Assembly (NCBI GenBank): GCA_030699855.1
Contig: JAUYKR010000108.1
Coordinates: 1 to 25,203 of the forward strand
Direction of reading: 5' to 3'
Length of the DNA stretch: 25,203 nucleotides
DNA from: a bacterium
GTDB lineage: Bacteria; Patescibacteriota; Gracilibacteria; JAUYGZ01
In this document: one piece after another, positions 17,632-17,844 of the stretch
How positions within the stretch are numbered: the stretch's first letter is position 1
Layout: the number at the start of each line of letters is the position of its first letter
The notes under the pieces: generated by a model
Told to the model about the DNA's origin: nothing
The model's database searches: none
Seen by the model: only the letters and a program-made list of their open reading frames with translations
Translations under genes and position numbers: made by a program

Positions 17632-17707
17632 TGGTGGAGCTGACCGGAATTGAACCGGAACCTCCTGGGTGTCAACTCCAGGCGCTCTACCATTAAGCTA
17701 CAGCCCC
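17632..17707 (-). tRNA. Atypical tRNA: Ala-type acceptor stem (G3:U70, A73, encoded CCA) with a 9-nt anticodon loop (AGUUGACAC); identity ambiguous between Ala and Val-GAC
   Basis: GGGGCUG UA GCUU AAUGGUA GAGC G CCUGG AGUUGACAC CCAGG AGGU UCCGG UUCAAUU CCGGU CAGCUCC A CCA (76 nt). The cloverleaf is intact apart from the enlarged loop and a U49:U65 mismatch. Confidence 0.85.
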
Positions 17708-17740
17708 ATGAATCCACCAGGTATATTTGATCATACAGAA

Positions 17741-17764
17741 AAACTCTTCTGGAAGGAAGAGTTT
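17741..17764. terminator. Probable bidirectional intrinsic terminator
   Basis: AAACTCTTC-TGGAAG-GAAGAGTTT 9-bp stem with T-runs on both strands, lying between ychF and the tRNA and downstream of the convergent ComEC gene. Confidence 0.6.
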
Positions 17765-17844
17765 CTGTGACACCCAGGAGGTAGACCGTAACTTAATACG
17801 GCACCCGGAGTTATGTACACAGTATATCAATTTCTCTGCTAGAA

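Follow-up and report, generated by a model that had tools for sequence, protein, structure and literature searches.

A small RNA gene with covarying complementarity to the anticodon arm of a neighbouring tRNA-Ala-derived tRNA-like RNA

In type I toxin-antitoxin systems such as zor-orz and tisB/istR-1, the antisense small RNA (sRNA) is encoded adjacent to its target gene without overlapping it, and in the 3'ETS-leuZ case a spacer of a precursor transfer RNA (tRNA) acts as a sponge for an sRNA. Natural mistranslating tRNAs, reviewed in PMC11415595, include tRNA-Ala anticodon variants, Streptomyces tRNA-ProX, and yeast CUG tRNAs; as stated there, alanyl-tRNA synthetase (AlaRS) reads the acceptor stem only, and tRNA-Ala anticodon variants therefore mistranslate. 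Here we analyzed a locus within a 25,203-nucleotide (nt) stretch of DNA from a Gracilibacteria bacterium (contig JAUYKR010000108.1, positions 1 to 25,203), hereafter the window. The locus, at 17632-17848 of the minus strand, holds an sRNA gene followed by the gene of a tRNA-like RNA, and together they are termed a module (Table 1). Two segments of the sRNA, A' and B', are complementary to two adjoining segments, A and B, of the tRNA-like RNA. No description of an sRNA with a tRNA body as its dedicated target was found in Rfam or in the literature searched.

Complementarity between the sRNA and the tRNA-like RNA

The repeat search of the window paired 17660-17674, inside the tRNA-like gene, with 17768-17782 as an inverted repeat of 15 nt, with 100% complementarity and 93 nt between the arms. 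An earlier note on this DNA had described the exact 15-nt reverse complement as very unlikely by chance, and the statistics confirmed it. Allowing up to two mismatches, the 15-mer occurs at two sites in the window and nowhere else, and 100 shuffles gave a mean of 0.04 chance matches and never two (0/100). The second match described in that note, 12 nt at 17801-17812 with two G:U pairs, was also recovered (minus-strand AACUCCGGGUGC, read 17812->17801); against index 23-35 of the tRNA-like RNA it covers 12-13 positions, with a third G:U pair at the additional 5' position. Likewise, the CCGUA/UACGG hairpin between the segments and the terminator-like hairpin after them are both present in the sequence. 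A local misassembly, which the note had named as a possible source of the match, is not what the contigs of three runs show, as the stretch is intact in all of them. It lies in a single contig of run X1, an identical contig occurs in a second sample, X2 (17486-17796), and the stretch is also found in an unrelated air metagenome, X3 (17650-17825), with 3 differences. At the level of contigs, no joints were reported across the stretch in runs X1, X2, and X3.

Across the tabulated modules, the two arms occupy the same places of the tRNA-like RNA. B' pairs with index ~34-47 in 18 of 18 modules, running from the wobble position along the 3' anticodon-stem strand into the variable loop, and A' pairs with index ~22-34 (the D-stem end and the 5' strand), with very divergent arm sequences. 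The A':A and B':B helices meet exactly at wobble position 34 in all modules. The B:B' pairing is almost wholly Watson-Crick, and A:A' is rich in G:U. We compared cognate with non-cognate combinations by ungapped run lengths, which replaced a noisy RNAduplex matrix that permits long interrupted duplexes. The longest Watson-Crick run of B' had a cognate median of 12.5 against 5.2 +/- 1.7 for non-cognate combinations; the longest run of A', with G:U counted, was 11.5 against 6.8. Among the 38 tRNAs of the window's genome, the best partner of each sRNA was its neighbour.

The covariation test was carried out on a structure-blind MAFFT alignment of 14 modules. As a result, 84% of the cells were paired, against ~40% after the partner column was slid by 1-3, and 22 of the 34 pairs had changed on both sides. 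The covariation score was 0.40 against ~0.10, and none of 500 shuffles reached the observed values. Counted by helix, both-side changes affected nine of 11 pairs in helix 1 (A':A) and 11 of 15 pairs in helix 2 (B':B). This comparison of the tRNA loop with its upstream copy in relatives had been proposed in the earlier note as a check; together with two-segment compensatory complementarity in 26 modules, it supports the note's suggestion of a minus-strand RNA antisense to the whole anticodon arm.

For the window pair, the calculated duplex energies were -30.0 kcal/mol (B':B) and -21.4 kcal/mol (A':A), and the free-state energies were -8.5 kcal/mol for the anticodon arm alone and -14.7 kcal/mol for the 5' part of the sRNA alone. 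Cofolding gained 12 kcal/mol with B':B alone; the two helices cross, and RNAcofold cannot hold both. In the predicted fold of the free sRNA, the 3' UGUC of B' is mostly unpaired. From this exposed UGUC and the duplex energies, the modelled seed looks like a codon-anticodon contact, with GUCA of the sRNA on UGAC of the tRNA-like RNA, which would be extended by strand invasion.

Gene order varies among the modules. In G109, the tRNA-like and sRNA genes are convergent, so that the repeats are direct in the DNA, and the RNA complementarity is intact. In G004, the tRNA-like gene comes first, followed by the sRNA gene, each with a separate promoter, and the complementarity is again intact. Additionally, ~90 nt of AT-rich DNA lie between the two genes in G001:C88. 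Since the complementarity survives reversed and convergent gene order and uses G:U pairs, it acts at the RNA level and in trans. We therefore regard the two transcripts as very probably a co-evolving RNA-RNA pair acting in trans.

Distribution of the modules and orphan sRNAs

The 261-nt stretch was submitted to BLAST against 41 related genomes, which returned paralogs of the whole module, both from the window's genome and from other genera. Covariance models were then built for the sRNA (R1, R2) and for the tRNA-like RNA with its leader and trailer (R3), and searched against 151 class genomes and 151 genomes from the phylum. The models and direct inspection gave 26 intact modules in 15 genomes from seven GTDB families of Peribacteria/Gracilibacteria-type bacteria of the candidate phyla radiation (CPR). 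Five intact modules were found in G001, three in G000, two each in G002, G109, G140, G087, and G105, and one each in G004, G031, G054, G064, G094, G088, G122, and G192, the last of another class. The genome G043 had sRNAs with a deleted or disrupted tRNA-like gene only. At least one module gene was present in 15 of the 151 sampled class genomes. Outside the class, the phylum-wide sRNA search yielded one true module (G192:C5), and the remaining matches were plain terminators. The tRNA-like model added six modules, each of which had a cognate upstream sRNA. In most modules, the sRNA gene lies 25-30 nt upstream on the same strand.

No conserved neighbour gene was found at the modules; the recurrent open reading frames (ORFs) were frames across the module itself or reflected synteny within one genus. 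In the window, no ORFs overlap the module other than stop-to-stop frames that run across the tRNA, and a convergent gene follows it. Several copies per 1-Mb genome are costly in reduced CPR genomes, and the module is therefore likely functional.

For at least six sRNAs that appear intact, the tRNA-like partner is deleted or disrupted. In G000:C34 and G043:C2, internal deletions have removed all of the tRNA-like gene but its 3' acceptor end and trailer; in G001:C165, it was lost by deletion and insertion of a repeat; and in G140:C3 and two further cases in G043:C2, it is lacking altogether or retains its 5' part only. The orphan sRNA of the window's genome matches the C73 tRNA-like RNA over 11 Watson-Crick pairs. 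The reverse case, a tRNA-like gene without an sRNA, was not seen (0) in this limited sample, in which the search was partly sRNA-centred. Such an asymmetry, with the sRNA outliving the tRNA-like RNA, is expected if the sRNA is needed whenever the tRNA-like RNA is present.

Two further observations concern the disrupted loci. The repeat of ~100-170 nt (AATGGGGA...CGCTCTCC...hairpin...GGAGTCCTTCGCT...CTCGCCACTTTC) lies downstream of the tRNA-like gene in G001:C180 and inside the disrupted one in G001:C165; its appearance is that of a small insertion element, which would have disrupted one of the modules. In G043:C2, ~130 nt downstream of an sRNA, the 5' part of a tRNA-like gene (GGGGCCGUAGCUUAGAAGG...) runs into unrelated sequence; either this gene has been disrupted, or its anticodon region holds a long insertion or intron.

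The sRNA gene and the tRNA-like RNA

Table 1. Features of the window module. Positions are those of the window; arrows give the reading direction.
Feature	Positions	Strand	Description
sRNA promoter	17848->17821	minus	-35 TTGATT, 16-nt spacer, -10 TATACT with upstream TG (extended)
sRNA, ~83 nt	17731..17815	minus	A', hairpin, B', terminator-like hairpin with U tract; 82-84 bits with R1/R2
A' segment UAACUCCGGGUGC	17801..17813	minus	pairs with tRNA-like index 23-35 (D-stem end and 5' anticodon stem), three G:U
Small hairpin CCGUA-UUAAGU-UACGG	17786..17801	minus	5 bp, between A' and B'; in models R1/R2
B' segment ACCUCCUGGGUGUCA	17768..17782	minus	fully complementary to index 34-48 of the tRNA-like RNA (from anticodon nt 34 to the variable loop)
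Terminator-like hairpin CAGAAACUCUUCC...GAAGAGUUUUUCUG and UAU tail	17731..17769	minus	arms 17736-17749 / 17756-17769
Putative tRNA-like promoter	17730..17735	minus	-10-like TATGAT, 7 nt upstream of the leader helix; read from sequence
5' leader arm ACCUGGUGGA	17713..17722	minus	pairs with 3' end UCCACCAGGU (17629-17638), 10 nt, 100%
tRNA-like RNA, 76 nt	17632..17707	minus	ARAGORN call; Rfam tRNA (RF00005) 57.1 bits, gathering score 29
Target region	17660..17685	minus	A (17685->17673) and B (17674->17660); D-stem end, whole anticodon arm, variable loop

The earlier note had taken the antisense RNA for a product of the ychF 3' untranslated region (UTR), a view that did not hold, as the sRNA has its own promoter, conserved in paralogs. 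The -35 hexamer overlaps the ychF stop codon, and segment A' begins ~7 nt past the promoter. By sequence reading, the pattern TTGATT/TTGACT/TTGCAA-N16-17-TAnnnT precedes the sRNA in most of its paralogs and orthologs. Additionally, at none of nine other Peribacteria/Peregrinibacteria ychF loci does the module follow ychF. The sRNA thus reads as an independent gene and not as a ychF 3' UTR product. Opposite its promoter, the plus strand carries a promoter-like site, TACACA-18-TAGAAT with TG (17816-17845), directed antisense into the ychF 3' end.

The stem of the small hairpin is kept across the family as CYGU/ACRG, with a variable loop, as read from the alignment. The terminator-like stem has 13-14 pairs, with G:U pairs and compensatory changes; because of the G:U pairs, the minus strand is taken as the transcribed strand of the sRNA. 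The base of this stem (ACAG/CUGU) overlaps B'. The called and conserved promoter consensus and the covarying terminator-like hairpin, which the simple terminator scan did not call, would fit separate transcription units for the sRNA and the tRNA-like RNA. The Rfam scan of 17000-18500 at E<=1 returned nothing over the sRNA; the only matches were tRNA and a weak, sub-threshold SpF41 match on the tRNA.

The target, which the earlier note had called an odd tRNA, is not unique but a member of a family derived from tRNA-Ala. It scores 107 bits with model R3. Its acceptor carries the alanine identity set (G1-C72, G2-C71, G3:U70, G4-C69, A73, and an encoded CCA), and G1-G4 and C71-C72-A73-CCA are invariant or nearly so across the tRNA-like alignment A4. 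Judged by this set, the RNA would be alanylated. The tRNA-only BLAST matches, which are its nearest relatives, are genuine tRNA-Ala genes, and we conclude that the tRNA-like RNA descends from tRNA-Ala. The cloverleaf is canonical (U8, A14, G18G19, a UUCAA T loop, and a short D loop) except in the anticodon arm, which is two nt over normal length with the loop G-U-UGA-C-A, and which can be drawn with a 9-nt loop or, equivalently, as a 6-bp stem with an A:C mismatch. The anticodon-equivalent is most plausibly UGA with C37, a reading based on the 74-nt member G001:C180, whose arm is unambiguously canonical and carries the loop CUUGACA.

Position 37 is C throughout the family, apart from U37 in a few members and A37 in one, whereas the ten genuine tRNAs of the genome that were compared have the usual purine. 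The anticodon-equivalents are UGA in most members, with CGA, UGU, CGU, GGU, UGG, UAA, UAG, and GAA in others and UGC once; most are NGN, a single step from the Ala anticodon UGC. Nearly every tRNA-like retains U33 and has a purine at position 35, which may fit either a residual decoding ability or an antisense-type U-turn loop.

The 5' leader arm is complementary to the final tRNA bases and two trailer bases. The leader:trailer helix covaries (CCUGGUGG/CCACCAGG, GCUGGUGG/CCACCAGC, and GCGUGGUGG/CCACCACGC) and is absent from all ten of the ten genuine tRNAs of the genome that were checked. Directly after the terminator-like hairpin stands the -10-like TATGAT; a TAnnnT element occurs 7-8 nt before the leader helix in nearly all modules, including G004:C28 and G109, where no sRNA lies upstream. 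The base preceding G+1 is nearly always U, and a U at this position is compatible with RNase P processing.

Established functions were considered for the tRNA-like RNA. A substitute for transfer-messenger RNA (tmRNA) was rejected, as the genome has a normal tmRNA and SmpB; model RF00023 gave 28.9 bits on the tRNA-like RNA against 85.8 bits for the true tmRNA at G000:C77. A Y RNA was rejected as well, with no Ro60/TROVE gene found in the genome and no Rfam YrlA match. A sole-decoder role was also discarded, as a genuine tRNA-Pro(UGG) exists alongside the UGG tRNA-like. Despite the alanine identity, tRNA finders label the tRNA-likes of the window, G000:C58, and G000:C73 as tRNA-Ser(UGA) or tRNA-Pro(UGG), and automatic annotation of such genomes will overcount Ser, Thr, and Pro tRNAs.

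Some members and relatives depart from the common form. The tRNA-likes of G001:C68 and G054:C6 have a large additional hairpin (~40-60 nt) that separates the T arm from the 3' strand of the acceptor, and their cognate sRNAs are retained. An AT-rich relative at G081:C6:52812-52911 (minus) is a tRNA with complete alanine identity in the acceptor (G3:U70, A73), a short D loop, and a normal-looking anticodon loop, UUUCGAU (UCG, Arg; A37); no closing helix and no upstream sRNA were found there, and it could be a case of sense-codon reassignment or a mistranslating tRNA. In the G000 assembly, which is 88% complete, RF00010 (bacterial type A RNase P RNA) was not found, and tRNA-His and tRNA-Ser(UGA/CGA) are missing among the 38 tRNAs called; these gaps likely reflect the incomplete assembly.

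Mechanism, rival explanations, and comparison with known systems

We consider it likely that the dedicated role of the sRNA is to mask and unzip two domains, anticodon and D, of a tRNA paralog that would accept alanine. The expression of both RNAs and the cellular effect of their binding are what we infer from sequence. In the proposed mechanism, an sRNA of ~83 nt would be made from its own strong promoter. The tRNA paralog keeps the AlaRS requirements (G3:U70, A73, and CCA) and a normal elbow, together with a private, fast-evolving anticodon arm with C37. The exposed 3' seed of the sRNA (UGUC/GUCA) would meet anticodon nt 34-37, presented by the U-turn, and pairing would proceed along the 3' anticodon-stem strand and on into the variable loop, with 12-15 Watson-Crick pairs in all (B':B). 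The 5' segment of the sRNA would then take the freed 5' strand and the D-stem end (A':A, 10-13 pairs, many of them G:U). As an outcome, the anticodon and D domains would be unzipped and masked, and the acceptor/T minihelix would stay free. Most likely, an alanine-accepting RNA would thereby be kept from anticodon-dependent use in decoding, or sent to decay. The two RNAs would effectively form a cognate antidote-and-target pair.

Several points weigh against this mechanism. The duplexes stand in a parallel order, with A' 5' of B' and A 5' of B. Both could exist together only if the complex took on a junction-like or side-by-side geometry, the outer ends being bridged by the small hairpin of the sRNA and by the D/T core of the tRNA-like RNA; otherwise, the duplexes may form in alternation. 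C37 and the mismatched 6-bp stem may already impair decoding, which would make masking needless. G105:C121 has the Ala anticodon UGC, so not every member would mistranslate. Finally, the search for orphan tRNA-likes was confined to the 151 sampled genomes and a score cut.

An elaboration of the masking mechanism, which we hold to be doubtful, is an all-RNA poison-antidote or regulated-mistranslation module. Here, the tRNA-like RNA would insert Ala at Ser, Thr, or Pro codons, and the sRNA would mask its anticodon; UCA and UCG make up ~1.4% of the codons in the window's genome. If true, it would account for the specificity of each sRNA for its cognate, for the presence of multiple orthogonal copies, for the greater strength of the sRNA promoter, and for sRNAs outliving their tRNA-likes and never the other way round.

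The sRNA could instead be the 5' part of a read-through precursor, serving in cis as a leader for chaperoning, processing, or T-box-like auto-attenuation, in which the nascent leader would be bound by the mature tRNA-like RNA. Its position 25-30 nt upstream on the same strand in most modules would suit such a leader, as would the minimum free energy fold of the 194-nt read-through RNA, which includes the B':B helix, and the arrangement of B', which abuts the terminator-like stem and is overlapped by its ACAG/CUGU base. However, complementarity is kept in the convergent G109 and the reversed G004 modules, where pairing in cis is impossible or unlikely, and orphan sRNAs have intact promoters. 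A -10 element of its own precedes the tRNA-like RNA at a constant spacing, and Rfam shows no T-box or antiterminator element. We judge the cis-acting leader improbable.

Less probable still is a guide RNA whose antisense segments would position the tRNA-like RNA for modification, cleavage, or editing at 33-35. Two guide-like segments do surround a conserved hairpin, with the duplex junction at wobble 34 in all modules, and such a guide would be comparable to the box C/D guide of archaeal pre-tRNA-Trp or to H/ACA pockets. Against this, no C/D or H/ACA boxes were seen by eye, Rfam gave no snoRNA-like match, and the order of the segments is opposite to that of an H/ACA pocket. Moreover, no conserved protein gene lies nearby, and the pairing leaves no defined unpaired target nucleotide.

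We give just as little credence to a reversal of roles, in which the tRNA-like RNA would be an antisense regulator on a tRNA scaffold, recognizing perhaps other targets through its U-turn loop, or an Ala donor for a non-ribosomal user such as a FemAB-type transferase, and the sRNA a sponge or partitioning factor. U33 with purine 35 forms a YUNR-like U-turn, a motif that occurs in antisense RNA recognition loops. Additionally, G000 has a FemAB-family gene (C69:1929-2822, plus, 328 aa; aminoacyl-tRNA-dependent peptidoglycan bridge), and the acceptor/T minihelix would be free in the complex. However, the genome holds no other good match to the 15-nt arm, and FemAB is present in 146 of the 151 class genomes against ~15 with the module, which gives no co-occurrence signal.

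Explanations at the DNA level, in which the 15-bp inverted repeats would be either inversion sites or the remnant, accidental or decaying, of a partial duplication, are scarcely credible: although the window repeat is perfect, the many G:U compensations would be mismatched in DNA, G109 has direct repeats with RNA complementarity kept, no recombinase or conserved neighbour gene lies at the modules, and the complementarity is conserved across seven families. The inversion of the tRNA 5' half and its promoter, put forward in the earlier note, is rejected on the G:U compensation, the G109/G004 arrangement, and the absence of any inverted joint in the contigs of the three runs in which it was sought.

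The compensatory complementarity of the sRNA and its target, which persists whatever the arrangement of the genes, is that of a trans-encoded antisense pair; by their defining tests, the module is not a type I toxin-antitoxin system, a T-box, a tmRNA, or an invertible promoter. Both the sRNA and the closed-end C37 tRNA-like RNA, the latter now mislabelled as tRNA-Ser, tRNA-Thr, or tRNA-Pro, represent new RNA families. The module could be a natural case of RNA-controlled tRNA availability, whether by regulated or neutralized mistranslation, by partition of Ala-tRNA, or by targeted tRNA decay, and the modules supply a ready set of orthogonal RNA-RNA pairs.

The tRNA-like RNA shares an alanine-type acceptor with tmRNA; however, it is a full cloverleaf without an mRNA-like domain. 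With YrlA, a bacterial Y RNA, it shares a tRNA-like body closed by a 5'/3' helix. In 3'ETS-leuZ, as here, the transcript of a tRNA gene base-pairs with a trans sRNA, whereas there the spacer is paired rather than the tRNA body, and its sRNA targets mainly mRNAs. T-box leaders also read a tRNA by Watson-Crick pairing with the anticodon, and the UGGU complementary to ACCA has its counterpart here, but in the leader of the tRNA-like RNA itself. In contrast to T-box leaders, the module has no Stem I, specifier loop, or antiterminator (Rfam, E<=1) and no regulated downstream ORF; its pairing spans 12-15 nt and invades the anticodon stem rather than docking a folded tRNA, and its partner is a private paralog encoded alongside. 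The likeness to mistranslating tRNAs lies in a tRNA-Ala duplicate that retains G3:U70 with the anticodon shifted to Ser, Thr, Pro, or Leu triplets, whereas C37, the extended mismatched anticodon stem, the leader:trailer helix, and the dedicated antisense sRNA are not described for those tRNAs. Compared with type I toxin-antitoxin systems, the target is a tRNA-like RNA rather than a toxin ORF, and toxicity of the tRNA-like RNA is hypothetical. In both, the antisense sRNA gene adjoins its target gene and has short (15-20 nt), cognate-specific complementarity to it, a genome holds several diverged copies, the promoter of the antidote is stronger than that of the target, and the target decays while the sRNA gene stays.
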